DNA of 64,000 nucleotides, from contig JAHCJZ010000001.1 in assembly GCA_026126025.1 (NCBI GenBank), positions 333,937-397,936 on the forward strand, read 5' to 3'. Below the pieces are notes generated by a model. The model ran no database searches and was not told where the DNA came from. It was given only the letters and a program-made list of their open reading frames with translations. The position numbers and the translations under genes are program-made. Source of the stretch: Bauldia sp. GTDB taxonomy: Bacteria; Pseudomonadota; Alphaproteobacteria; Rhizobiales; Kaistiaceae. Numbering within the stretch: position 1 is the stretch's first letter; each line of letters starts with the position of its first letter. Positions 29,458 to 50,072 of this stretch are shown here, one piece after another.

Positions 29458-29543
29458 TCGTCACCCCGGCGAAGGCCGGGGTCCAGCGCCCCACGACGGC
29501 CTGAGCAAGTGACTCTGGATTCCGGCCTTCGCCGGAATGACGA
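29458..29543. repeat. Family B palindromic intergenic repeat
   Basis: tcgtcaccccggcGAAGgccggggtccag ... ctggattccggcCTTCgccggaatgacga, between convergent sufA and the GGDEF gene. Confidence 0.8.
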
Positions 29544-29576
29544 AAAGAGTGAGGGGTCTCGCAATCGAATCCGGAC

Positions 29577-39379: not shown

Positions 39380-39465
39380 GGAACCCAGCCCAGCGGTTTG
39401 GTTTCCTTCGCCAGGGTGACTCGCGAAAACCAGCGTCGGTGCTCGACCACGAAGCAACCCCTCTT

Positions 39466-39551
39466 TCGTCATTCCGGCGAAGGCCGGAATCCAGCGCCAC
39501 ACGCTCCGGCCTTCGTGTGATTCTGGACCCCGGCCTTCGCCGGGGTGACGA
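39466..39551. repeat. Family B palindromic intergenic repeat (arms swapped relative to other copies)
   Basis: tcgtcattccggcGAAGgccggaatccag ... ctggaccccggcCTTCgccggggtgacga, between convergent ydeI-like and nadE-like genes. Confidence 0.8.
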
Positions 39552-39601
39552 GGATTTGGGTCGCGAAAGAGGGGGCGTGAAGGGAGCGGGGTGCGTCCCG
39601 C

Positions 39602-40648
39602 CTAGGCGTCGACCATGGCGGCGGCCAGGACCGGCTCCACCAGCAATGGTCGCTCGTGGAGATAGGCGGTCGCCTTGCGCTTGGCCGCGATGTCGTCCCA
39701 GACATGGCGGACCTGCTCGGCGGTGAGGCCCGCCGCGGCGCCCACGACCTGGAGCGGGAGGTTGTGGTTGAGGCCGAAGAGGCAGAGGTCCATGCGGTCC
39801 CAGGGCAGGGAGAAGTAGAACTCGTCCTGGCCCTGCGCGAGGGACCAGGTGTCGGTGGTCGGCGGCCGGACGCGGATCTCCTCGGGTACGCCGAGCGCCT
39901 CGGCGAGTTGGTAGACCTGCGTCTTGTAAAGATGCGCGATCGGCTTGAAGTCGGCCGCGCCGTCGCCGTTCTTCACGAAGAAGCCCTGATCGTATTCGAG
40001 GCGGTTTGGCGTGCCGGCGACCGCGTAGTTGAGCCGGTCGGCATGGGTGTATTCCAGGAGCTTCCGCGTTCGCTGCTTCATATTGGTCGCCGCGATGACC
40101 GCGAGATAGACCGAGAGCGGCATTCGCTCGGTGCGCTGGTTGCCCGCCGGGTCCTGCACCACCAGCGACGTGATGTTGAAGCCCTTGCCTTCGAGCGCGT
40201 TGCGGATGACGACCTTGCAGCCCCAGCCCTCGCCGAATTCCGGCACGATCTCGCGGATCGCGGCGTCGCGGCGCTGGTAGCAGCCGCCGGCCGCCAGCAT
40301 TGGCGCGATGTCCTCCACCACGGTCTCGATGCCGAACCGGTCGGCGACGAGCTTGCCGAGGCGAAGGCTCTCCGGGTCGGAGTCCTTCTCCGGCATCAGC
40401 ACGCCGAGCACGCGTTTCGGGCCGACGGCCTCCGCGGCAAGACCGGCGGTGACGCTGGAATCGATGCCGCCCGACAGCCCGAGGACGACGCCGCGCCGCC
40501 GGAAGCGTTTGAGGACGCTCTCCCGGATCGAGCCGGAGATCTTCTTGATCTCCGCTGCGGCGTCCATTCTGAGGGCGGCGGCGGAGAAGACGAACGCCTC
40601 GATCTCTGCGAGGGCGGATGTGGCGAACTCGACGGCCGTGGTCAGCAT
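39602..40648 (-). CDS. NAD(+) synthase-like N-type ATP pyrophosphatase (no glutaminase domain)
   Basis: 348 aa with the PP-loop GLSGGIDSS and NadE-like C-terminal motifs (FKPIAHLYKTQVYQLA, PPTTDTW...QDEF). ATG at 40648 has GAGGA 7 nt upstream, overlapping the ligase stop. Confidence 0.78.
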   Translation of the reverse strand: MLTTAVEFATSALAEIEAFVFSAAALRMDAAAEIKKISGSIRESVLKRFRRRGVVLGLSGGIDSSVTAGLAAEAVGPKRVLGVLMPEKDSDPESLRLGKLVADRFGIETVVEDIAPMLAAGGCYQRRDAAIREIVPEFGEGWGCKVVIRNALEGKGFNITSLVVQDPAGNQRTERMPLSVYLAVIAATNMKQRTRKLLEYTHADRLNYAVAGTPNRLEYDQGFFVKNGDGAADFKPIAHLYKTQVYQLAEALGVPEEIRVRPPTTDTWSLAQGQDEFYFSLPWDRMDLCLFGLNHNLPLQVVGAAAGLTAEQVRHVWDDIAAKRKATAYLHERPLLVEPVLAAAMVDA

Positions 40649-40658
40649 CGTTCGGTCC

Positions 40659-42227
40659 TCAGGCCGCCACGACGGGCGGCATTTCGTCTTCGGCGACCAG
40701 CCGGCGGCTGATCTTGCCGGAATCGGTCTTCGGCAGTTCGGCGCGGAAGGCGATGTGCTTCGGCACCATGTAGTCCTCCAGGTGCCGCGCGCAGTGCTGG
40801 ACGATGTCGCGCTCGGTCAACGGCGAGCCCGGCTCCAGCGCCACCACCGCCTTGATCGCGGCGCCGAGGATGGGGTCGGGCACGCCGATCACCGCCGCCT
40901 CGCGGATGCCGGGAAGGGCGTAGAGCACCGCCTCGACCTCTTTCGGCGAAACCTTCTCGCCGCGGCTCTTGATGATGTCGTCCTTGCGGCCGACGAAATA
41001 GAGGAAGCCCTCGTCGTCGGTGCGGAAGAGGTCGCCGGTATGGAGCACCTTCTCCCACGGGAACGGCCCCGGCTTCAGCGCGCGGTCGGTGGCTTCGGGG
41101 TTCTCCCAGTAGCCCTTCATCACATGCGGGCCGCGGATGACCAGCTCGCCGATAACGCCCGGCGCGACCCGGACGCCGCTCTCGTCCACGACATAGGCCT
41201 CGGTCCCGGGGATCGCGATGCCCACCGAACCCGGACGCCGCGCCAGCTCCGCCGGCGGCAGATACGTGCAGCGCTTGCACTCGGTGAGGCCGTACATCGA
41301 ATAGAGCCGCGTCGTCGGGAAGAGCGCCTGGAGGCGCTGGATGTGCGCCGGCGGCAGCGCGGCGGCGGTGTTGGTGATGTAGCGAAGGTCCGGGAAGTCG
41401 CCGGGTCTTATGTCCTTCATCTGGAGGATGATCGCCGCCATGGTCGGGACCAGCGGCAGGCCGGTCACCTTCTCGGCCTTCGCCTTCTCCAGGATCGCGG
41501 CGGGGAAGGCGAAGGACTTCTCCAGCACCAGCGTCGCGCCGACCTTCGCCGCCATCAGCACCTGGTAGAGGCCGTAGTCGAACGACAGCGGCAGCACCGC
41601 GAGGATGACGTCGTCCGCCGTGTTCTCGACATAGGTGGTGATCGCGGTCGCGGCGGCGATGACGTTGTCATGCGTCATCATCACGCCCTTGGGCTGGCCG
41701 GTGGAGCCGGAGGTGTAGACCAGCATCGCGAGGTCGATGGAGATGCCGGCGAAGGGGAGAAGCGCCTCCGCGCCCTCCGCCAGCGCCTCGACCAGCCGGA
41801 GATTGCCGGGAAGGTCGGTCTCGCCCGCACCGCCCGCGACGACGGCGAGCTTCACCGACGGCGCGGAGGCGATCGCGGCGGCGGCGACCGGGATCAGCCT
41901 GTCCTGCGTCACGATCGCGGCGGCGCGGCAATTGTTGAGGACATAGGCGAGCTTGTCGGCCTTGGTGGTCGGGTTGATCGGGCTGAACGCGCAGCCCGCC
42001 TTCAGCGCCGCGAAGAAGCCGACAACGGCCTCCCAGCAATTGTCCATGAAGACGACGACGCGGTCGCCGCGCGCGATCCCGCGCGCCGCCAGCGTCGCCG
42101 CAAGCCGGTCGGAGGCGAGGTCGAGGTCGGCATAACTCAGCCGGTTCGGGCCGGCGACGAGGGCGGTCTTGTCCGGGTGGCGCCGGGCGCTGTCCTTGAG
42201 GAAGTCTTCAACGCGCATCTCGTGCAC
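40659..42227 (-). CDS. AMP-dependent synthetase/ligase (acyl-CoA or acyl-ACP ligase family)
   Basis: 522 aa with the AMP-binding core motifs YTSGSTGQPKGV, YGLTE, TGDL and SGKISRR. Confidence 0.88.
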   Translation of the reverse strand: MHEMRVEDFLKDSARRHPDKTALVAGPNRLSYADLDLASDRLAATLAARGIARGDRVVVFMDNCWEAVVGFFAALKAGCAFSPINPTTKADKLAYVLNNCRAAAIVTQDRLIPVAAAAIASAPSVKLAVVAGGAGETDLPGNLRLVEALAEGAEALLPFAGISIDLAMLVYTSGSTGQPKGVMMTHDNVIAAATAITTYVENTADDVILAVLPLSFDYGLYQVLMAAKVGATLVLEKSFAFPAAILEKAKAEKVTGLPLVPTMAAIILQMKDIRPGDFPDLRYITNTAAALPPAHIQRLQALFPTTRLYSMYGLTECKRCTYLPPAELARRPGSVGIAIPGTEAYVVDESGVRVAPGVIGELVIRGPHVMKGYWENPEATDRALKPGPFPWEKVLHTGDLFRTDDEGFLYFVGRKDDIIKSRGEKVSPKEVEAVLYALPGIREAAVIGVPDPILGAAIKAVVALEPGSPLTERDIVQHCARHLEDYMVPKHIAFRAELPKTDSGKISRRLVAEDEMPPVVAA

Positions 42228-42245
42228 CCGAAGTCAGTCCGCGGC

Positions 42246-42509
42246 TCAGGCAGCCGCCGCCGAAGCGCCGCCCGCGCGGTCGACATAGCGTGCGATGGCA
42301 TCGATCGAATCGAGGTTCTCGGGGACGATGTCGGCGTCCGCCATCGCCACGCCGAACGTGCCTTCGAGGAAGGCGACGAGCTCCAGGACGCCGGTGGAGT
42401 CGATGAGCCCGGCATCGAGCAGCGACTCGTCGTCGGCGACCGTTTCGCGGTCGTCGCGGTAGAGGAAATTGTCGGCGATGAAGGCTCGGATCTGGGCCTT
42501 GATGTCCAT
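42246..42509 (-). CDS. Acyl carrier protein (free-standing)
   Basis: 87 aa from ATG 42509: MDIKAQIRAFIADNF...LLDAGLIDSTGVLELVAFLE. The DS motif is the phosphopantetheine attachment site. GGGAG lies 8 nt upstream. Confidence 0.85.
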   Translation of the reverse strand: MDIKAQIRAFIADNFLYRDDRETVADDESLLDAGLIDSTGVLELVAFLEGTFGVAMADADIVPENLDSIDAIARYVDRAGGASAAAA

Positions 42510-42526
42510 GTGTCGTGCTCCCGTGG

Positions 42527-44485
42527 TCAGGCCGCCGCGCTTCCGAGGCCGGCCGCGCCGGCGCTCGTGAAAGCGCTCTGCCAAAGCTGGGTGGTGAGGA
42601 TGCCGAGGAACGCCATGTTGTCGCGGAAGCCGACCTCGCCCTGGCGCCGGCATTTGGCGACGAGGCGTTCGGTGGCGCGGGGGTCGAACACACCGCCGGC
42701 CGCGATCGCCGCCGGCGCGAGCTGCTCGGCGACATAGGCCGGCGCGGTCGCGCCGACGAAGGGCACTGTCTCCGGCGCGCGATAGGGCTGCTTCACCCGG
42801 TTGCCGATCGCGGGCGGCAGGATGTCCTTCACCGCTTCGCGGAGGATGTGCTTCTCGCGCAGCCCGCGGAGCTTGAGCCGCGGCGGGATGCGGGACGCGA
42901 ACTCGACCACCCGGTGGTCGAGGAACGGGAAGCGGCCCTCGACGGCATGCGCCATCGACACCCGGTCGCCCTGCGAGGACAGGATGTAGCCGGGGAGGAG
43001 ATGCGCGGTTTCGAGATACTGCGCCTGCGCCAGCGGATGCCAGCGCGCGAAGCGCTCCGGCAGTTGGTTGCGGAAATCCTCCAGCGCGTCGTAGCCCGCG
43101 AGCCGGCCGCGCAGCGCCTCGCCGAAGAACACCTTCGCCCCCGCCGTCGTGCGGAAGCGCGGCAGGTGCGAGTAGAGCGGGTCGGCAAGATCGTTCGCGC
43201 CGCCGCCGAAGAAGGACTGGAGATAGGCCGGCGACTGGCTCTGCAGCCGCGGCAGATAGGGATAGAGCCGCTGCAGCAGGAGATGCCGCCACGCCGAGCC
43301 GGGCTGCCGCGCGTTGAAGCGGCGGACCTTCGCTTCCTTGAAGATGTCGTAGCCGGCGAACACCTCGTCGGCGCCTTCGCCGGTGAGGACAACCTTGTAG
43401 CCGCTCGCCCTCACATGCCCGGACAGCGCGAACAGCGGCACCGGCGAGGTGCGCAGGATCGGCCGCTCGGTGGCGCGGATCACGTCGGGGAGGGCGGCGC
43501 CGATCGCGGCGGTGGTGGCGCAGAGCGACGTGTGGTCGGTGCCGAGTGCGCGGACCATCTCCTGCTGCGGTCCGGTCTCGTCATATTCGGGCGACTCGAA
43601 CGTCACCGAGAAGGTGCGGAGCCGGTCCGCGACCTCGTTCTTCGCCATCGCCGCGACGATCGAGGAATCGAGGCCGCCGCTGAGATAGGAGCCGACGGGA
43701 ACGTCGGCGCGGAGGCGGATGCGGCACGCATCATCGAGAAGCGAGCGGAGCTCCGCCGCGATCTCCGTCTCGTCGCGCCGGTCATAGGCGTCCGCGTCGC
43801 TGGCATCGGGATAGTCGAGCTGCCAGTAGCGGCGAATGCTCGTCGCGCCGTTCTCGACCACCATGAGATGGCCGGGGAGCAGTTCCTCGATGCCCGCGAA
43901 GGGCGTTCGCGGCGCGAGCGGGAACCAGAAGGTGAAGATCTGATCGAGCGCAACCGGGTCGAGCGCAGCCGGCATGCCGGGCACGGCCAGCAGCGCCTTG
44001 ATCTCCGACGCGAAATAGAGACAGCCGCGATGGCTCGTGTGGAAGAGGGGGCGCACGCCCATCCGGTCGCGCGCGATCAGGAGCCGCTGCTCGCGCGAGT
44101 CCCACAGGGCGAAGGCGAAGTCACCGTTGAGCCGGGTGACGCAGTCCGGCCCCATCGCGCGATAGAGCTCGAGAATGACCTCGGTGTCGGAGCGGCTGTG
44201 GAAGACGTGGCCGCGCGCGACGAGCTCGTCGCGGATCTCGACATAGTTGAAGATCTCGCCGTTGAAGGTGATGGTCAGCCGGCCGTCATGGCTCGCCATC
44301 GGCTGCGCGCCGCCGGCGACGTCGATGATGCTGAGGCGGGCATGCGCGAGACCGACCTGGCCGTCGACGAACACGCCGCTGCCGTCCGGCCCGCGATGGC
44401 GGACTGCGCCGATCATGTCCTGGAGAAGCCGCCCGGGCGGGGTCGCCGGCACTGACGGGCCGAAGAACCCTGCAATGCCGCACAT
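42527..44485 (-). CDS. Asparagine synthase-family glutamine amidotransferase (AsnB-like)
   Basis: 652 aa. It has the MCGIAG N-terminal nucleophile Cys2, a GATase-2 domain and the PP-loop SYLSGGLDSS. Confidence 0.92.
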   Translation of the reverse strand: MCGIAGFFGPSVPATPPGRLLQDMIGAVRHRGPDGSGVFVDGQVGLAHARLSIIDVAGGAQPMASHDGRLTITFNGEIFNYVEIRDELVARGHVFHSRSDTEVILELYRAMGPDCVTRLNGDFAFALWDSREQRLLIARDRMGVRPLFHTSHRGCLYFASEIKALLAVPGMPAALDPVALDQIFTFWFPLAPRTPFAGIEELLPGHLMVVENGATSIRRYWQLDYPDASDADAYDRRDETEIAAELRSLLDDACRIRLRADVPVGSYLSGGLDSSIVAAMAKNEVADRLRTFSVTFESPEYDETGPQQEMVRALGTDHTSLCATTAAIGAALPDVIRATERPILRTSPVPLFALSGHVRASGYKVVLTGEGADEVFAGYDIFKEAKVRRFNARQPGSAWRHLLLQRLYPYLPRLQSQSPAYLQSFFGGGANDLADPLYSHLPRFRTTAGAKVFFGEALRGRLAGYDALEDFRNQLPERFARWHPLAQAQYLETAHLLPGYILSSQGDRVSMAHAVEGRFPFLDHRVVEFASRIPPRLKLRGLREKHILREAVKDILPPAIGNRVKQPYRAPETVPFVGATAPAYVAEQLAPAAIAAGGVFDPRATERLVAKCRRQGEVGFRDNMAFLGILTTQLWQSAFTSAGAAGLGSAAA

Positions 44486-44633
44486 TTATGATTAACTCCG
44501 CCTCATCATCCCGCGTGCCCAGCAGGACAGGCGAACTCTTACGCCGCGCAATTTTCCCGGCAACGACAGATCGAAATCAAAGTAAACTTCTGGACTAATT
44601 CGCGGTTTTAACGATTGCCGAAGTGCTTTTGAT

Positions 44634-45728
44634 TCAATTGAATGCGCCGCCGATCAGCCGGCTCCACGACTCACCCGCAAGCCCCGTGACCACCGCGTCG
44701 GGGCGCGACAGCGCGGCGACCAGCGCCGGGTCGCGCGCCGCCGCGGTCATCGCCGCGCGGCGGTAGAGGATCGCGTGCCGGCGCAGCAGCGCCTCGAGAA
44801 AGGCGGGCTGCGTCCGTCCGCGGACCGCGGCATAGCCTTCCGCATAAGCGTGCGCGAAGAGGTCCTCGACGACGCGCTCGGCTTCGCCCGGGCGCGCGAT
44901 CATCTGCATCACCCAGGCGATTCCGCGCGGTTCGGCATAGTAGAGAACGCAGCCCGCGAGCTCTCCCTTGCGACCCGGAACCAGCCGGCGATGCAGCGTG
45001 CCGCGATGCTCCTTCAGCCGGGCCTGGCCGAGGAACCAGCGCAGCACGTCGGGCTCCCAGCCCGGGTGGAGGCTCAGGCTGTCGGCGAGCGCGATCAGCT
45101 GCGGCACCAACTCCTCCTCGCTGACCTCGTGACCCGGATGCTTCGGCGCGGGCTCCTCGGGGACGAGCGCGCCGCGCGCGACGGCACGGGCGAGGCGGTC
45201 GATGCCCCAGGCGAACGGCCGGAGCGCGACGGCGGCCCTGGTTCTGCCTTCCGCAAGCGCCGAAGCGAGGCGGCCGGGCCGGAAGACGCGCATCCAGTCC
45301 ATGCTGAGCGCGGCGATGGTGGTGCCGCCCATCTTGTCCCACATGCGCTGCGACAGCGGGTTCGACGTCTCGGAGAGCGAAATGTCCTGCGGCCCCGTGA
45401 GGAAGGCGCGCAGGAGCCGCGCGCCCGCGAGCGGATCTTCGCGCGGCGCGTCGACCATCAGCGATCCCGCAATGCCCGCCTTCAGCGGACGTCCGTCGAG
45501 AACGAGCCGGAGCGGCATCACGCCGATGAACCCGTTCACCGCGCCGGTCGGCGCGACATGGACGTGGGACGCGATTCCTTCCTCCTGCCACGGGTGGCGG
45601 AGGAACACCGTCTCCAGATGCTCGGCCAGCGAAGCCGGCGCAGCCCGGCGGCCGTCGCCGAACGTCTTCTCGAAGAGCGCGGCGACCGCCGGAACGTCAC
45701 CGGCGGCGAAGGGGCGTACTGAAGTCAT
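44634..45728 (-). CDS. Probable GNAT-family acyltransferase, large two-domain form
   Basis: ATG at 45728: MTSVRPFAAGDVPAVAALFEKTF..., a typical GNAT N-terminus. At 364 aa it resembles the Eis-like extended GNATs. This assignment rests on weak motif recognition only. Confidence 0.55.
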   Translation of the reverse strand: MTSVRPFAAGDVPAVAALFEKTFGDGRRAAPASLAEHLETVFLRHPWQEEGIASHVHVAPTGAVNGFIGVMPLRLVLDGRPLKAGIAGSLMVDAPREDPLAGARLLRAFLTGPQDISLSETSNPLSQRMWDKMGGTTIAALSMDWMRVFRPGRLASALAEGRTRAAVALRPFAWGIDRLARAVARGALVPEEPAPKHPGHEVSEEELVPQLIALADSLSLHPGWEPDVLRWFLGQARLKEHRGTLHRRLVPGRKGELAGCVLYYAEPRGIAWVMQMIARPGEAERVVEDLFAHAYAEGYAAVRGRTQPAFLEALLRRHAILYRRAAMTAAARDPALVAALSRPDAVVTGLAGESWSRLIGGAFN

Positions 45729-45958
45729 GCGGAATTCGCGGTTGGGCGAAGTCAGCTTCGCGCGGCCACCATGCACCGCCGCTGGTTACAGAATCGGAAT
45801 CTTGATCGTAGAAAGTGCGGTCGCGGGCGTCCCACCTCTCGCGCACAGGGCGCCGGCCGACTCAGCACCCCCAGAATCACCCGGACTTGCAGCACGTCCG
45901 CTTGGCCAGCGAAGTCTTAGACTTCGCAACTTGTCCACAGGGCCGCCGGTTTCCGGGA

Positions 45959-46051
45959 TGGCGGAGAGGAAGGGATTCGAACCCTCGATACAGCTTTTGA
46001 CCGTATACTCGCTTAGCAGGCGAGCGCCTTCGACCACTCGGCCACCTCTCC
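45959..46051 (-). tRNA. tRNA-Ser (anticodon GCU), CCA encoded
   Basis: The reverse complement folds as a cloverleaf. Acceptor GGAGAGG/CCTCTCC, anticodon stem CTCGC/GCGAG with loop CU-GCU-AA, a long variable arm, T-loop GGTTCGAATCC and a 3' GCCA. Confidence 0.93.
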
Positions 46052-46513
46052 CTCGGCGGGACTTAGCTTCCGGTGCCCGTTCGATCAAGGCCGGCGGGAG
46101 ATTGCCGCGGTTTCCGGGGGCGTCGGGGCGAAGAAAAAGTCCATCGAAGCCGCCTCATCTCCCGCTTTGGTAACGGAATGGAAAGGATCGCGCCGGGCCG
46201 TCCAGCGACATCGGCGGGTCCGCTTCGCGGCCAGTGATATTAGTGCAACAACGTCCGGCAATTGCTGTGATGCTGGGCAAAACCGGGCGTTTCGTCGTTG
46301 CGCGCAACCCACGCTCGGCTATCTTCCGGAGTGCAAATCGCGGGGCGACCTGCGCTTCGTGTTCGGCGGTTCGGATCACCCGGGGGTGGGGATCGTAATC
46401 CGGCGAATGGGTAGGGGACTGGGATACCTTCACAGGCGCTCTGATTACCGGATCCGTCCGGGAGCTTTGAGAAGACAAATCTGCCCCTGAATTGAACCTT
46501 TGGAGGTCAGGCA

Positions 46514-47719
46514 ATGAGACTTACGAAGCTTCTTCTCGGCTCTGCGGCGATCATGTTCGCCAGCGGGGCAGCTTATGCCGCCGATCCGGGCGCACCTGGC
46601 GTAGTCGTTCCGACGACCAGCTATGTCCCGCAGTGCGGCACCAACAACTCCGGCTGGCTGAAGGTCGGTGGTGCTCTCGAATGGTGCCTCACCTTCTCGG
46701 GCGGCGCCAGCTTCAGCTCGTCGTTCGGCATGGACATCGACTACGACGACGTTCCGACCGACGCGGTTTCGGTTCCGATCGGCACCGGCGGCTGGAGCGG
46801 GTTCAACCTTTCGAACTCGGTTCGCCTGGTGGCGTTCACGATGACCCCGGCCGGTCCGATGATCATCTCGATCCCGATCGACGGCAGCGGTGTTGAGTTC
46901 CTCACCATCGGCAGCTTCACCTTCACCGACAGCTACGTTTCGATGTGGCGGGCGGTTGGCTCGTTCTTCGTCGGCTTCAACGTCGTCGAGCCGGGTGACA
47001 CGTCGAACTTCTTCCTGCGTCCGGTCTTCGGTGCGCCGAGCATCGGCGGCGGGCTCCACACCACCTTCGCCGACGATGGCGCGATCAGCTACCTGCAGAA
47101 CGATGTTCCGCGGCTGCCGGATCTCGAAATCGTCTTCGGCATGGGCGGTACCCCGGCTGCGGGCGCTCCGATGGTTCGTGGCGGCTTCTACGTCGGCCAG
47201 CGTGAACTCGCTGCTACCGACTTCCTGATCTACGGCGCGCTGATCGACACCGGCTTCGTCGTCGGCCCGGCCACGGTCACCTTCGCGGCTCGTGTTGACC
47301 ACACGGTCATCGATCCGCTCGGTATCGCCAGCGGCCTCGCTCCGGTCATCGGCAACGCCTTCGGCGTCGGCGGTGGCGTGAGCTTCGCGGTCGGCGATCG
47401 CGCCAGCGTGTATGTCAACGCTGCCTTCGGTCGTAACAGTGGCGCCTACACCGGCTACCACCACGACGATCAGCCGGCCGGCAACTACCTGAACGTCGGC
47501 GGCGGCTTCGAGGTCGACATCACTGAGCAGTGGGCGTTCGGCTTCGACGCCAGCTTCGATCGCGGCCCGGTCGCGAACGACGGTGTCATCGAGCTCGGCG
47601 CTGGGCTGACCTTCAACCCCTTCGGCAACCTCGAGGTTACCCTTGGGGCCGATTGGAGCCGCACGCAGACCGGCGTGTCTGCCGCGAGCGCCGACTTCGG
47701 CGTCAGCGTCGGCTTCTAG
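46514..47719 (+). CDS. Porin (alphaproteobacterial Porin_2 / RopA-Omp2 type)
   Basis: Signal peptide MRLTKLLLGSAAIMFASGAAYA. It has the N-terminal Cys pair context (YVPQCG...WCLTFSGG) and ends with ...FGVSVGF. Confidence 0.82.
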   Translation: MRLTKLLLGSAAIMFASGAAYAADPGAPGVVVPTTSYVPQCGTNNSGWLKVGGALEWCLTFSGGASFSSSFGMDIDYDDVPTDAVSVPIGTGGWSGFNLSNSVRLVAFTMTPAGPMIISIPIDGSGVEFLTIGSFTFTDSYVSMWRAVGSFFVGFNVVEPGDTSNFFLRPVFGAPSIGGGLHTTFADDGAISYLQNDVPRLPDLEIVFGMGGTPAAGAPMVRGGFYVGQRELAATDFLIYGALIDTGFVVGPATVTFAARVDHTVIDPLGIASGLAPVIGNAFGVGGGVSFAVGDRASVYVNAAFGRNSGAYTGYHHDDQPAGNYLNVGGGFEVDITEQWAFGFDASFDRGPVANDGVIELGAGLTFNPFGNLEVTLGADWSRTQTGVSAASADFGVSVGF

Positions 47720-47744
47720 TCCGACCTTCACTGCAAGAGACAGA

Positions 47745-47773
47745 GGCCCGGCGGGTATCCCGCCGGGCCTTTT
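47745..47773 (+). terminator. Rho-independent terminator of the porin gene
   Basis: ggcccggcggg-tat-cccgccgggcc followed by tttt, 26 nt after the stop codon. Confidence 0.85.
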
Positions 47774-47894
47774 CATTTGGGTCGGCTTGCCACAGGCGCC
47801 GGCCTCCTTCCGCTCGACAGGACCGGCCGGGGGTCCTATTCCCAAGCCTTGCGGCGCGTCGCGCCGCGTGTGATGGCGCGTAATCGGACACCGG

Positions 47895-50072
47895 ATGTCG
47901 GACGGTGCGGAGCAGGGGGAAGACGAGGCCACCGGGTTCTTTCCGGGCCTGGTGCGACTCATCCGCGGCTGGCTGCTGCCGGCGGCGGTCGCTTCCACCC
48001 TCCTTGCCGGGGGCGCGGTGGCGCTGCGGCTCTCTGATGTCGAAGCCGACCTTGCCGAACGCGTCATGGCCCGCCTCGATCAGGGCGGCTACTCCTGGCT
48101 CACCGTGGAAGTCGACGGCCGCGCGATCGTGCTGAGCGGCACGGCGCCGTCGCTGGTCGAGCAGAGCGACGTCCGCGACGCAGTCGCCGCCGTCTGGGGC
48201 GTCGGCGCCATCGACGACCGCACCGACCTCATTCCCCTGGTCAACCCGTTCGACTGGGCCGCAGCCCGCGCCGGCAACACGATCACCCTGTCCGGCCACG
48301 TGCCGTCCGAGAGCGTGCGGGCCGCCCTTCACGCGCTCGTGGCGGCAAACCAGCCGCAGGGCCTTGTCGAGGACCGCACGACGCTGGCGCGCGGCGCACC
48401 GCCCGACTTCCAGCAGGCGGCGGAGTTTGGGCTGAGGCTGCTGGCGAACCTCGTCGACGGCACCGTTGCGCTGCTGGGCACCGAGCTTTCGGCGGAAGGC
48501 CTGTCGATCGACACCCCGCGCTACGAGAACGTGCTCGAGCTGGCCGAATCGGCGCGGCCTGCCGGCTACGCGCTGGCGCGGAACGCCATCCTGCCGCCGC
48601 GCGCCGACCCCTATGTGTGGTCGCTGACCTTCTTCGGCGACCGCGTCGTGATCCGCGGCGCGGTACCGAGTAACCTGCTGGCGACCTCGCTCGCCGCCGC
48701 CGTGTCGGTCGCAGTTCCGGACAAGCCCGTGGTCGACGAATCGCAGCTCGCCTCGGGGGCGCCCGAGCGGTTCGAGGCGGTGGCGCGCCATGCCCTGGCG
48801 CTCGCCGCCCACCTCGTCGATGGCGAGGTGACGCTGACCGGCACCCAGATCGGCATCTACGGCCGCGCCCGGACGCCCGAAAGCTACGAGACCCTCCTTG
48901 CGGTGCTGGCGGAACCGTCTCCCGAGGGGATGTCGATCACCTTCGACATCGTCCCGGCGCTGGCGCCCGCTTACGTGTTCGAGGCCGTCCGCGACGGCAT
49001 CGGCGTTCAGGTCATGGGGTTCATGCCGTCCGAGCAGGCGCGCGCCGACGTTCTCGCCGAGGCCAATGCCCTGTTCGGCGGCGCGGTCACCGACAACCTC
49101 CAGATCGCCGACGGTGCCCCGCGGATGGACTGGATCGGCGCCGCCAAATTCGCGCTCGGCCAGGTCTCGCGCCTCGGCGTCGGATCGGCGCGGATCGCCG
49201 ATCACCGCTATTTCGTCACCGGCTCGGCGGCGACCTCGGAGGGATACGAGACCATCACCAACCAGCTCGCCGCCGTGCTTCCCGCCAGCCTGGAGCTCGA
49301 TGAATCGCTGGTGCTGGCGCCGCTTGCCCAACCCTACCGGTTCACCGCCGCCGTCGGGCCCGACGCGGTGACGCTCGGCGGCAATGCGCCGACGGCCCGG
49401 ATCCGCGAGGCTTTCGTGGCGGCGGCGGCGATCCGTTTCGATCCGCTGCCGGTCAACGGCACGATCAGCCTCGCCAGCGGCGCGCCGGCCGGCTTCGACG
49501 CCGCGGTGCTCGCCGGCCTCCAGGCGATCAGCCGACTGGGGGCGGGACGGCTCGAGATCGTCGACACGAGGGTCTCGGTCGATGGGCTCGCACCCCATGA
49601 AGCGGCGGTGGATCGCATCGAGCAGCAGCTCGCGACGGCTCTCCCGGCTGGCTTCACGCGCGAGGCCGCGCTGACCGTGCAGCCGCCCGAAAGCCGCGTC
49701 ACGCCGGCGGAGTGCCAGTCGCTGCTCGACCAGGAACTCGGCGCCGGCACCGTCAAGTTCGCCGAGGGCGCCGCGACGATCGCGCCGGAAAGCCAAGGCC
49801 GCCTTGATCGCCTCGTCGCCATCATCCAGCGCTGCCCCGACGCCGAGGTCGAGATCGGCGGCCACACCGATGCGGGCGGCTCCAACGCCGTGAACCTGAC
49901 GCTCAGCCAGGCGCGCGCGGAGGCGGTCGTCGAGTATCTCGTCCAGGCCGGGGTTCAGGGTGACCGGCTTTCGGCCGTGGGCTATGGTGAGACAAGCCCT
50001 GTCGCCAGCAACGACACCGCAGAGGGGCGCGCACGCAACCGGCGGATTGAATTCACGATTCAGGAGCCCTGA
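47895..50072 (+). CDS. OmpA-family peptidoglycan-binding protein with N-terminal TM, BON-like domain and four internal ~120-aa repeats
   Basis: The C-terminus is an OmpA_C domain (VKFAEGAATI...GHTDAGGSNAVNLTLSQARAEAV..YL...GYGE..P.A.N......NRRIEF). The N-terminus has a BON-like segment (VEVDGRAIVLSGTAPS...VRDAV). Confidence 0.85.
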   Translation: MSDGAEQGEDEATGFFPGLVRLIRGWLLPAAVASTLLAGGAVALRLSDVEADLAERVMARLDQGGYSWLTVEVDGRAIVLSGTAPSLVEQSDVRDAVAAVWGVGAIDDRTDLIPLVNPFDWAAARAGNTITLSGHVPSESVRAALHALVAANQPQGLVEDRTTLARGAPPDFQQAAEFGLRLLANLVDGTVALLGTELSAEGLSIDTPRYENVLELAESARPAGYALARNAILPPRADPYVWSLTFFGDRVVIRGAVPSNLLATSLAAAVSVAVPDKPVVDESQLASGAPERFEAVARHALALAAHLVDGEVTLTGTQIGIYGRARTPESYETLLAVLAEPSPEGMSITFDIVPALAPAYVFEAVRDGIGVQVMGFMPSEQARADVLAEANALFGGAVTDNLQIADGAPRMDWIGAAKFALGQVSRLGVGSARIADHRYFVTGSAATSEGYETITNQLAAVLPASLELDESLVLAPLAQPYRFTAAVGPDAVTLGGNAPTARIREAFVAAAAIRFDPLPVNGTISLASGAPAGFDAAVLAGLQAISRLGAGRLEIVDTRVSVDGLAPHEAAVDRIEQQLATALPAGFTREAALTVQPPESRVTPAECQSLLDQELGAGTVKFAEGAATIAPESQGRLDRLVAIIQRCPDAEVEIGGHTDAGGSNAVNLTLSQARAEAVVEYLVQAGVQGDRLSAVGYGETSPVASNDTAEGRARNRRIEFTIQEP

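Follow-up and report, generated by a model that had tools for sequence, protein, structure and literature searches.

What do five neighbouring minus-strand genes of an alphaproteobacterium make together, and from what do they make it? The genes lie in a stretch of 64,000 nucleotides (nt) of Bauldia sp. (assembly GCA_026126025.1, contig JAHCJZ010000001.1, positions 333,937 to 397,936), referred to here as the window, and encode a NadE-like protein, an AMP-forming ligase, a free-standing acyl carrier protein (ACP), an AsnB-type glutamine amidotransferase and a GNAT-like acyltransferase. An earlier note, made from the sequence of the window alone, had described them as an orphan cassette for an amidated small molecule or for modification of a surface component. 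We propose that the cassette is a carrier-protein-dependent aminoacyl-amide transfer pathway; for this whole chain, glycan acceptor included, we estimate a probability of about 0.45. The narrower statement, that it is a carrier-protein pathway with an aspartate-type, non-fatty substrate, is probably correct. The five genes are placed as follows.

39602-40648, minus strand: NadE-like gene, 348 amino acids
40659-42227, minus strand: gene for the AMP-forming ligase, 522 amino acids, with a likelier start at the ATG at 42218
42246-42509, minus strand: ACP gene, 87 amino acids
42527-44485, minus strand: gene for the AsnB-type amidotransferase, 652 amino acids
44634-45728, minus strand: GNAT-like gene, 364 amino acids

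The nature of the substrate is indicated by the ligase, a stand-alone member of the ANL superfamily with PF00501 and PF13193 domains that falls below the cut-off of every specific NCBIfam model (the best being TIGR03098, at 474.7 versus 592.35). Searches of the PDB with the whole protein matched LgrA (5e-90) and VinN (2.5e-82), both adenylation domains of the nonribosomal peptide synthetase (NRPS) kind, ahead of FadD5 and the oxalate and malonate ligases. With the pocket segment (residues 195-350) VinN scored 99 bits (E 2.7e-27) and the next match 52 bits. The motifs of VinN and of the ligase align without gaps (WDFGLY with FDYGLY, TNSAAALP with TNTAAALP and MYGQTECKR with MYGLTECKR) and, after conversion of the VinN chain index to the published numbering by a constant offset of 16, ligase residues D217, Y218, T287, K318 and R319 occupy the positions of VinN D230, F231, S299, K330 and R331, again without gaps. 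In VinN, D230 binds the beta-amino group, with K330 and R331 in a shortened b13-b14 loop and F231 and S299 opposite, and with this pocket the enzyme handles 3-methylaspartate and L-aspartate as beta-amino acids, activation taking place at the side-chain carboxyl (PMC11253843); the enzyme loads the stand-alone ACP VinL (PMC11284099). Every element of a VinN-type pocket (the aspartate, a bulky residue next to it, serine or threonine at position 299, and Lys-Arg in a short b13-b14 loop) was found in the window ligase. Judged by these residues, the ligase is not a generic acyl-CoA ligase and carries a VinN-type aspartate pocket, which points to the loading of an aspartate-type acid through its side-chain carboxyl and not of a fatty acid.

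Relatives of the GNAT-like protein were collected from one genome per species, which gave 104 sequences and 80 loci that were kept, and partner genes were counted within 10 kb of the GNAT gene. The ligase was present in 70 of these 80 loci, the NadE-like gene in 68, the ACP in 66, AsnB in 33 and a polysaccharide deacetylase in 7. Nearly all of the loci belong to the Hyphomicrobiales (Bauldia, Xanthobacteraceae, Variibacter, Hoeflea, Nitratireductor, Neorhizobium including N. galegae, Pseudorhizobium, Phyllobacterium, Bosea and Rhodopseudomonas). All six GNAT-like relatives on long contigs have the order GNAT-AsnB-ACP-ligase-NadE between unrelated flanks. Elsewhere the arrangement varies: the genes may be co-directional as in the window, the GNAT gene may be convergent with NadE-ligase-ACP(-AsnB), as in Bosea and Neorhizobium, or divergent, as in Rhodopseudomonas, or it may stand alone with other partners, as in Phyllobacterium. 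Searches with tblastn also placed the cassette on plasmids, namely in 76 Sinorhizobium pSymB records, strain 1021 among them, and in Mesorhizobium, Shinella and Ensifer. The cassette is therefore real and widely conserved in soil and root bacteria. That the five genes travel together, which the earlier note had put forward as a check, holds for ACP, ligase and NadE-like gene near the GNAT gene, and fails in part for AsnB, missing from the Neorhizobium type, and for the GNAT gene, which is convergent, divergent or some 10 kb away in several lineages.

Comparison of pocket signatures across 61 cassette ligases distinguished two types. Type A (n=27, including the window and Sinorhizobium meliloti) has D217, Y221, T287 and K318 with an invariant R319, and type B (n=34, the Neorhizobium type) has G217, T221, A287 and L, I or M at 318, again with an invariant R319. 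AsnB adjoins the ligase in all 27 type-A loci, and type-B loci are without AsnB except for one, L025 (3597-9508, from the metagenome-assembled genome 'Proteobacteria bacterium OH_SBlB_87'), the sole case in which a type-B pocket (G217, A287, L318) has an adjacent AsnB. From these signatures we infer that type-A ligases load an aspartate-type amino-dicarboxylic acid, that type-B ligases load a related acid without the amino group, and that AsnB is tied to the type-A substrate. Because the cassettes of the Neorhizobium type have no AsnB within 10 kb of the GNAT gene (N. galegae was checked by open reading frames (ORFs) and Pfam), AsnB is a lineage-specific addition to a conserved core that consists of the GNAT-like protein with ACP, ligase and NadE-like protein.

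The amidotransferase itself is of a familiar kind. It matches PF00733 (2.8e-93), PF13537 (2.5e-47) and TIGR01536 (513 versus a cut-off of 267), begins MCGIAG with the nucleophile at Cys2 and has the PP-loop YLSGGLDSS, all as in class-II amidotransferases of the AsnB type; Cys2 and the PP-loop are conserved in 33 sequences. TIGR03104 was a match below threshold. AsnB is predicted to amidate a free carboxylate of the carrier-bound or transferred acid. The ACP scores 27.5 bits with PF00550 (cut-off 20.8), and its phosphopantetheine serine lies in LIDST (LIDSTGV in the translation), the DS motif being conserved in 42 sequences. No NCBIfam ACP model reached its cut-off with the window protein, and DltC was among the weak matches. 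The best match, to the ACP of the ornithine-lipid OlsH/OlsI pathway, was rejected as a functional link, at a score of 52 against a cut-off of 130 and with the GH3-like enzyme of that pathway absent here.

The cassette is no orphan, as the earlier note had called it. On the pSymB replicon of S. meliloti, asnB-smb20651-smb20650-nadE1 matches the core of the window cassette, which is tightly spaced on one strand, gene for gene and in gene order (in strain 1021 the match lies at NC_003078.1, 1451592-1453130), and tblastn gave identities, over nearly full length, of 60% for AsnB, 55% for the ACP, 66.5% for the ligase and 69% for NadE. By sequence the four-gene core is orthologous to this operon, with smb20651 the ACP and smb20650 the ligase, and by orthology the SMb20651 operon type is the only one to which the cassette belongs. 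The S. meliloti ligase has the type-A pocket signature (YLSNTAA, YGLTECKR), as has that of the window. The two regions differ in the placing of the GNAT gene, which in the window is directly upstream of the core and in S. meliloti lies at a distance of about 10 kb. There it shares an operon with a PrmC-type methyltransferase, and the genes for a Wzx-like 'lipopolysaccharide biosynthesis protein' and for a further GNAT paralogue diverge from this operon; unlike this region, the window has neither methyltransferase nor flippase within its 64 kb. The second paralogue on Sinorhizobium pSymB (L094 32052-34507; L092 8572-9642) is 29-31% identical to the window protein and sits directly downstream of the Wzx-like gene, and an L,D-transpeptidase gene and minCDE lie between the GNAT region and the asnB operon. 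In pSymB of S. meliloti ml46 (L094 14742-16647) asnB is split over two frames (residues 1-273 and 274-640) with no coding sequence listed; this copy appears to be a frameshifted pseudogene beside intact ACP, ligase and nadE genes.

A literature search found no paper that gives a function to the S. meliloti operon, nor any on PRK00876 or on the four enzyme names together. The 2009 abstract on the operon reportedly gives its composition as asnB-smb20651-smb20650-nadE1 and describes SMb20651 acylated with C12:0 and C18:0 chains in E. coli. The ligase gene smb20650 is cotranscribed with the ACP gene smb20651, and expression of SMb20650 in E. coli forming holo-SMb20651 led to acylated ACP, an acylation for which the ligase is required, as summarized in PMC7232532 (citing Ramos-Vega et al. 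2009). The same source states that smb20650 fails to complement fadD mutants with oleate or with endogenous fatty acids and gives no efficient synthesis of long-chain acyl-CoA (PMC7232532).

The acyltransferase is the least familiar of the five proteins. No Pfam, NCBIfam or PDB sequence matched it, and membership of the Pfam GNAT families, FemAB or Acetyltransf_6 was not found with sequence models; PF13527 was matched weakly by 27 of 50 relatives (best E 1e-5), and kinship with the FemAB-like Acetyltransf_6 was rejected at an hhalign probability of 0.3%. An AlphaFold (AF2) model built from a 50-sequence alignment (pLDDT 90.6, pTM 0.87) has two GNAT-fold halves in one chain, and its best Foldseek matches were N-myristoyltransferases (NMTs; E about 1e-14, probability 1.00, TM-score about 0.5). 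The model thus indicates a tandem double-GNAT acyltransferase: the family call made earlier from the letters is borne out by fold and not by sequence models of the window protein. In a profile search of 1.84 billion representative proteins, 2,244 clusters (at 50% identity) had E<=1e-3 and, at the stricter E<=1e-30, 1,182 clusters remained, so the family is sizeable and is without a Pfam or NCBIfam model. None of the five cassette proteins has predicted transmembrane segments that would suggest a location outside the cytoplasm. The double-GNAT protein is predicted to move a carrier-bound acyl or aminoacyl group onto an amine acceptor. One relative (L091 586-2991, P0376) is a fusion protein that continues into a C-terminal ATP-grasp domain (PF15632), which suggests an alternative route to carboxylate activation; its gene follows an ACP gene at 10 nt, an adjacency that ties the GNAT family to a carrier protein.

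These observations bear on a different explanation, which we consider unlikely, namely that the product is a lipid. The ligase would then be a fatty acyl-ACP synthetase, the double-GNAT protein would use a long-chain fatty acid to N-acylate a lipid head group, an amino sugar or an amino acid, carboxylates of the head group would be amidated by AsnB and the NadE paralogue, and the resulting amidated lipoamino acid or glycolipid would be exported by an MMPL or RND pump or by a flippase. The acylation of SMb20651 on co-expression with SMb20650, in the account cited above, and the acyl forms said to have been found would agree with this, although host enzymes could acylate a foreign ACP in E. coli and SMb20650 is no substitute for FadD with either source of fatty acids. 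Similarly, the best structural matches of the acyltransferase use myristoyl-CoA, but NMTs dominate the tandem-GNAT structures of the PDB, so that such top matches are unspecific. Other points in its favour are the sub-threshold ornithine-lipid match of the ACP, the MMPL gene with a MarR gene, or RND pumps, that flank the cassette in Bauldia and Nitratireductor, and the ligase itself, which retains A7/A8 motifs in the style of acyl-CoA synthetases (HTGD, GRKDDIIKSRGEKV) and finds its best NCBIfam matches among acyl-CoA ligase models. Set against these is the pocket, small and charged (D217, K318, R319), residue for residue that of VinN for aspartate, and without the hydrophobic tunnel of a fatty-acid enzyme.

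The presence of a second amidating enzyme beside AsnB also needs to be accounted for. The NadE-like protein matches PF02540 (1.2e-48), NF002048 (510 versus 313) and TIGR00552 (153 versus 63.65) and lies below the cut-off of the equivalog models NF010587 and NF001979. It is a single domain with the PP-loop LSGGIDSS and without a glutaminase domain, and its AF2 model (pLDDT 84) is closest in Foldseek to single-domain, NH3-dependent NadE structures (target-normalised TM-score 0.83-0.86); family membership by hidden Markov model, the SGGxDS PP-loop and the NadE fold of NAD+ synthetases were all found. Because the PP-loop, E218 and GFFVKNGDG are kept, the paralogue is very probably an ATP-dependent, carboxylate-adenylating amidating enzyme that uses ammonia or an amine. 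It is far more conserved than its cassette neighbours (at least 67% identity among relatives) and carries a family-specific insertion of about 65 residues (about 119-187), modelled as two helices and a three-stranded sheet. Within the insertion G122, C123, Y124, R126, W142 and K145 are invariant and R127 and D128 nearly so, and Cys289, outside it, is invariant; these residues could bind the substrate or the ACP, form a thiol intermediate or hold a metal. The invariant Cys123 and Cys289 prompted the idea of a role in Fe-S chemistry or thiolation, which was set aside, Cys144 being only partly conserved. Between type-A and type-B cassettes the NadE paralogue differs at 4 residues versus 17 in the ligase; its target is therefore probably a feature that the two types share, which could be the carboxylate held by the invariant Arg319 of the ligase or a carboxylate on the acceptor.

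A housekeeping role for these two enzymes is very improbable. In such a case the NadE-like protein would be an ammonia-dependent NAD+ synthetase and AsnB an asparagine synthetase, found beside an unrelated ligase and ACP by chance or through nitrogen co-regulation, and the models that both proteins pass (NF002048 and TIGR00552 for the one, TIGR01536 for the other), the intact catalytic motifs and the NadE fold are what would be expected. However, the NadE-like gene adjoins the ligase in 68 of the 80 loci, in four gene orders and amid many different flanks, often with overlapping or nearly overlapping stop and start; three of three close homologues sampled from metagenomes (>70% identity) lie in the same cassette; and the insertion is peculiar to this family. 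Since the gene travels with the cassette, it is very probably not a stray housekeeping gene; a sole NAD synthetase with which the other genes do not co-occur was the outcome that the earlier note had named as fatal to its idea. Furthermore, pSymB can be removed wholly once engA and a tRNA-Arg gene are relocated (PMC4207669), and the S. meliloti orthologue is carried there, so another NAD synthetase must serve that cell.

Partner genes in relatives provide the evidence on the acceptor. In 17 loci the immediate neighbour of the GNAT gene encodes a flippase of the MOP superfamily, of which three kinds occur: the Variibacter flippase gene overlaps the start of the GNAT gene, and in Phyllobacterium a Wzx/PST protein (Polysacc_synt_3, 2.8e-35) is encoded first in a flippase-methyltransferase-GNAT operon, beside a GINT1_N-like protein. 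A PF01522 deacetylase without signal peptide or transmembrane segment follows nadE directly in 7 of the 80 loci, as in Hoeflea and Nitratireductor, and some of these cassettes also have a FAD/BBE oxidase gene in divergent orientation (4 loci) and a gene for a GT9 glycosyltransferase (3 loci). In 15 loci the GNAT gene is translationally coupled to a methyltransferase of the HemK/PrmC family with an NPPY motif, a family whose members N-methylate the carboxamide of glutamine. On a Mesorhizobium ciceri plasmid the cassette genes, a methyltransferase-GNAT pair and a convergent asnB-acp-lig-nadE operon, lie downstream of genes for a GT2 glycosyltransferase, a HEAT-repeat protein, a YaiO outer-membrane barrel and a two-component system. 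One metagenomic locus has an additional FemAB-like Acetyltransf_6. Because flippases, a cytoplasmic deacetylase, glycosyltransferases and a carboxamide-type methyltransferase recur as partners, an amino sugar of an envelope glycan is the best candidate, and the evidence points to an envelope glycan as acceptor. The earlier remark that sugar genes are lacking holds for the window; it does not hold for the relatives, which link the cassette to flippases, deacetylase, GT2 and GT9.

The same neighbourhoods could be read as those of a soluble metabolite, a diffusible amidated aminoacyl compound (an osmolyte, signal or antimetabolite, in the manner of NAGGN or the dapdiamides) for which the GNAT protein would couple a free amine or amino acid to the acid held on the carrier and a MOP, MMPL or RND protein would provide export. 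We regard this as improbable. It would suit the cassettes that stand alone, without glycan genes, in the window and at many other loci, the RND, MMPL and MarR neighbours and the adjacent MOP proteins that score as MATE too; the GNAT-ATP-grasp fusion, moreover, recalls the dipeptide-amide synthase Ngg, itself a GNAT and ATP-grasp protein and the partner of the AsnB-type AsnO, and the sub-threshold TIGR03104 match of the window AsnB bears on the same likeness. By contrast, the flippases of Phyllobacterium and Sinorhizobium are clearly of the Wzx/PST type and lie in or beside the GNAT operon, and the polysaccharide deacetylase, the GT9 and the GT2 with its outer-membrane barrel point to glycans.

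Under the aminoacyl-amide transfer pathway that we favour, three steps can be envisaged. First, the ligase would adenylate an aspartate-type amino-dicarboxylic acid at the beta carboxyl and thioesterify the 87-residue holo-ACP, as VinN does with VinL; this step is suggested because the pocket is identical to that of VinN, and is consistent with the failure to replace FadD. Secondly, a PP-loop enzyme would turn the free alpha-carboxylate into a carboxamide, to give an isoasparaginyl-type thioester. The glutamine-using AsnB may be the natural candidate by analogy with AsnH, the AsnB-type enzyme of the lactococcal bridge, where the beta-carboxyl of D-aspartate forms the link to peptidoglycan and AsnH subsequently amidates the alpha-carboxyl (PMC4155827). 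The ammonia-using NadE paralogue would perform this step in cassettes without AsnB, or would amidate another, constant carboxylate. Thirdly, the cytoplasmic double-GNAT protein would move the unit from the ACP to an amine acceptor, most likely an amino sugar of a lipid- or nucleotide-linked envelope glycan precursor that is later flipped outward; in relatives, the deacetylase would free the amine and the PrmC-type N-methyltransferase could methylate the new carboxamide. A bolder version, which we offer as doubtful, is that many Hyphomicrobiales attach to a Wzx-flipped envelope glycan (lipopolysaccharide (LPS), capsule, exopolysaccharide (EPS) or peptidoglycan precursor) an isoasparaginyl group, the alpha-amide of a beta-linked aspartate, which some lineages would also N-methylate. 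A VinN-like ligase and carrier, AsnB with a repurposed NAD-synthetase paralogue and a double-GNAT protein would build the group, and the Neorhizobium type would use a non-amino diacid.

Several observations weigh against the pathway as proposed. The biochemistry available for the cassette family consists of ACP modification alone, and the reported C12:0 and C18:0 forms, together with the acyl-CoA-synthetase-style motifs and the model matches of the ligase, lean towards fatty acids; the NMT-like fold match is modest at a TM-score of about 0.5 and fits fatty-acyl transfer equally well. Aspartate has one free carboxylate, and two amidating enzymes exceed that need. The NadE paralogue probably has a target apart from the acid's variable part, and it keeps the core catalytic motifs of NadE and passes NCBI NadE models. 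Some of the 'flippases' have MATE exporter scores in addition to those for Polysacc_synt/MurJ, as would be in keeping with secretion of a small molecule. Finally, the links to flippase, deacetylase and methyltransferase are known from relatives, and none lies within the 64-kb window.

Comparison with known systems shows which parts of the proposal have precedents; as proposed, loading in the manner of VinN/VinL would be combined with AsnH-type amidation and with a Dlt/Alm- or Nod-type transfer onto an envelope polymer. The VinN/VinL (VinO) machinery of vicenistatin-type macrolactams likewise pairs a stand-alone adenylating enzyme with a stand-alone ACP, and VinN is the nearest solved structure in the pocket region, sharing with the window ligase five contact residues and the short b13-b14 loop. 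Unlike that pathway, the cassette and its relatives lack a decarboxylase dependent on pyridoxal phosphate (PLP; VinO) and a polyketide synthase (PKS), and the cassette lacks a second aminoacylating enzyme and a VinK-type acyltransferase, having two amidating enzymes and a double-GNAT protein instead; the host of VinN is an actinomycete and that of the cassette an alphaproteobacterium. The EPS loci of the XrtA/PEP-CTERM system, in which exosortase A, PEP-CTERM proteins and a PLP decarboxylase accompany the ligase, share three families with the cassette (TIGR03098 ligase, ACP and TIGR03108 amidotransferase), and TIGR03098 and TIGR03108 are the best or second-best specific NCBIfam matches. However, TIGR03098 and, at 421.7 versus 816.9, TIGR03108 stay below their cut-offs, no exosortase, PEP-CTERM or PLP decarboxylase gene was found among the Pfam-scanned neighbours in the window or in 12 related loci with called genes, and the NadE paralogue and double-GNAT protein are additional.

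In DltABCD (D-alanylation of teichoic acid) and Vibrio AlmEFG (glycylation of lipid A) a ligase loads an amino acid on a carrier for an envelope polymer. The Dlt and Alm transferases are membrane proteins (MBOAT DltB; AlmG of the LPLAT type) that make esters, whereas that of the cassette is a soluble double-GNAT protein, without transmembrane segment and of another fold family, and presumably makes an amide, so the Dlt/Alm combination of ligase, carrier and membrane transferase is not seen here; the cassette also has extra amidation steps. N-acylation of Nod factors depends on the deacetylase NodB, the acyltransferase NodA and the ACP NodF. The Hoeflea and Nitratireductor versions of the cassette share this logic, in that a cytoplasmic PF01522 deacetylase frees a sugar amine that is N-acylated from a dedicated ACP, but NodA belongs to an unrelated family and transfers a fatty-acyl group, and the deacetylase is absent from the window. 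The D-Asp/D-iso-Asn cross-bridge of Lactococcus and Enterococcus (AslA/Aslfm with AsnH) has the same chemistry as proposed for the cassette; it is made in Gram-positive bacteria by an ATP-grasp ligase through beta-aspartyl phosphate, with no carrier and no GNAT protein, and the likeness drawn here is one of chemistry.

The setting of the cassette was also examined, and the following features bound or divide it.

45959-46051, minus strand: tRNA-Ser(GCU), called by ARAGORN and Rfam, upstream boundary
44486-44633, minus strand: AT-rich spacer between the GNAT-like gene and asnB, 148 nt, 48.6% GC
39466-39551, unstranded: REP/MITE-like inverted repeat, 3' boundary of the cassette

The positions given earlier for the five genes, the tRNA and the repeat were all recovered, and the gaps of 17, 18 and 10 nt between asnB, ACP, ligase and nadE-like genes can be read from the junction sequences, as can the ligase stop, which lies inside cTGAGGAccgaacgATG and overlaps the Shine-Dalgarno sequence of the nadE-like gene. 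The Met-Arg at which conservation sets in across the ligase family is encoded from the ATG at 42218, which is therefore the likelier ligase start; it would make the gap from the ACP gene 27 nt. The GC content is 68.6% for the window and 69.1% for the cassette. Given the length and low GC content of the gap between the GNAT-like gene and asnB, the unit looks like one plus four genes and not like a single five-gene operon. The spacer is a probable separate promoter or regulatory region for asnB-acp-lig-nadE, a question on which the opposite strand of the GNAT gene in other genomes also bears. No Rfam family and no sigma-70 consensus match was found in it. Several candidate signals were rejected: Rfam at E<=1 gave only the tRNA and chance miRNA-like matches on the repeat and no riboswitch or other known RNA element upstream; there was no sigma-70 promoter match, and terminator-like sites were no commoner than in shuffled sequences; and an alignment of relatives 5' of asnB showed a loose TTAC(G)...TTT pattern that we find unconvincing.

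The arms of the repeat (39466-39503 and 39514-39551, 38 nt each) are 82% complementary, and an outer inverted repeat of 11 nt (39458-39468 and 39564-39574) encloses the hairpin. Identical 30-nt copies of part of it, TTCGTCATTCCGGCGAAGGCCGGAATCCAG, occur at 29515-29544 and 39465-39494, with 0 expected by chance. The repeat sits where the Hoeflea and Nitratireductor relatives have the polysaccharide deacetylase gene. At the other boundary, the tRNA was considered as a functional partner, for a tRNA-dependent, Fem-like transfer, and discarded: the tRNA is missing from most related loci and the ACP is consistently linked. Another Bauldia locus and one from Bosea also have a tRNA-Ser(GCU) gene 2-3 kb upstream (L008 6685-6778; L079 7503-7593), and most of the other 23 loci checked have no tRNA near the cassette. 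Two further loci have genes for phage-type integrases in the vicinity of the cassette (L003 2750-4090; L004 5506-6765). This hints at an insertion hot-spot or at mobility of the cassette, which is also plasmid-borne in Sinorhizobium, Mesorhizobium and Shinella.

Pfam assigned the flanks of the cassette to ParE/GyrB, GST, DUF6855, a YdeI-like protein, a porin-like protein, OmpA/BON and other unrelated functions, with no sugar gene among the flanking genes scanned, and tblastn of the whole window detected no homologue of the deacetylase, BBE oxidase, GT9, methyltransferase, flippase or FemAB-like partners. The acceptor pathway must therefore be encoded elsewhere in the Bauldia genome, with only the five core genes clustered. 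Upstream, a 401-residue ORF without Pfam match (46514-47719, plus strand), with a signal-peptide-like N-terminus MRLTKLLLGSAAIMFASGAAYAADP and a C-terminal phenylalanine, looks from its sequence like an outer-membrane beta-barrel or porin; the gene for the OmpA/BON protein follows at 47895-50072. A 540-residue ORF on the minus strand (46445-48067) was considered as an upstream partner and rejected as spurious: its composition, rich in Ala, Arg and Asp, is implausible, the real gene is on the plus strand, and the ORF is a typical artefact of high GC content. Two further genes recur near the cassette in relatives. One encodes an M24 protein (creatinase/Xaa-Pro peptidase), whole or as a fragment and in differing contexts (L088 1-891; L089 11350-12525; L090 10851-12026; L093 16154-16552), and the other resembles cobalamin-independent methionine synthase (Meth_synt_2; L073, L089 and L090).

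Part of what the earlier note had proposed from the letters alone has stood up. Pfam and NCBIfam agree with its family assignments for AsnB, ACP, ligase and NadE-like protein; its picture of a carrier-protein pathway with one adenylating ligase, an ACP, two PP-loop amidating enzymes and an acyltransferase, and without PKS or NRPS, describes a self-contained and conserved set; and the likeness to exosortase-A loci is, as it had judged, a resemblance only. To these the present analysis adds the VinN-type pocket, the two substrate types with which AsnB keeps step, the double-GNAT partner that no sequence model covers, and the links to flippase, deacetylase and PrmC-type methyltransferase, all of which we infer to be new, as they were absent from the literature found.

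The S. meliloti operon has been on record since 2009 without a function, its ACP and ligase having already been studied, and the analysis now supplies a concrete, testable chemistry and a parts list, in which an aspartate-type substrate of the ligase would replace the fatty acid that had been assumed. The cassette genes occur in the genetically tractable S. meliloti 1021, N. galegae and M. ciceri. If the proposal is true, it would provide the first role outside NAD synthesis for a NadE paralogue and, in the bolder version, a new class of carrier-protein-dependent glycan aminoacylation, and it would constitute a new surface modification in rhizobia and their relatives, of relevance to symbiosis and to resistance to phage and antimicrobial peptides.

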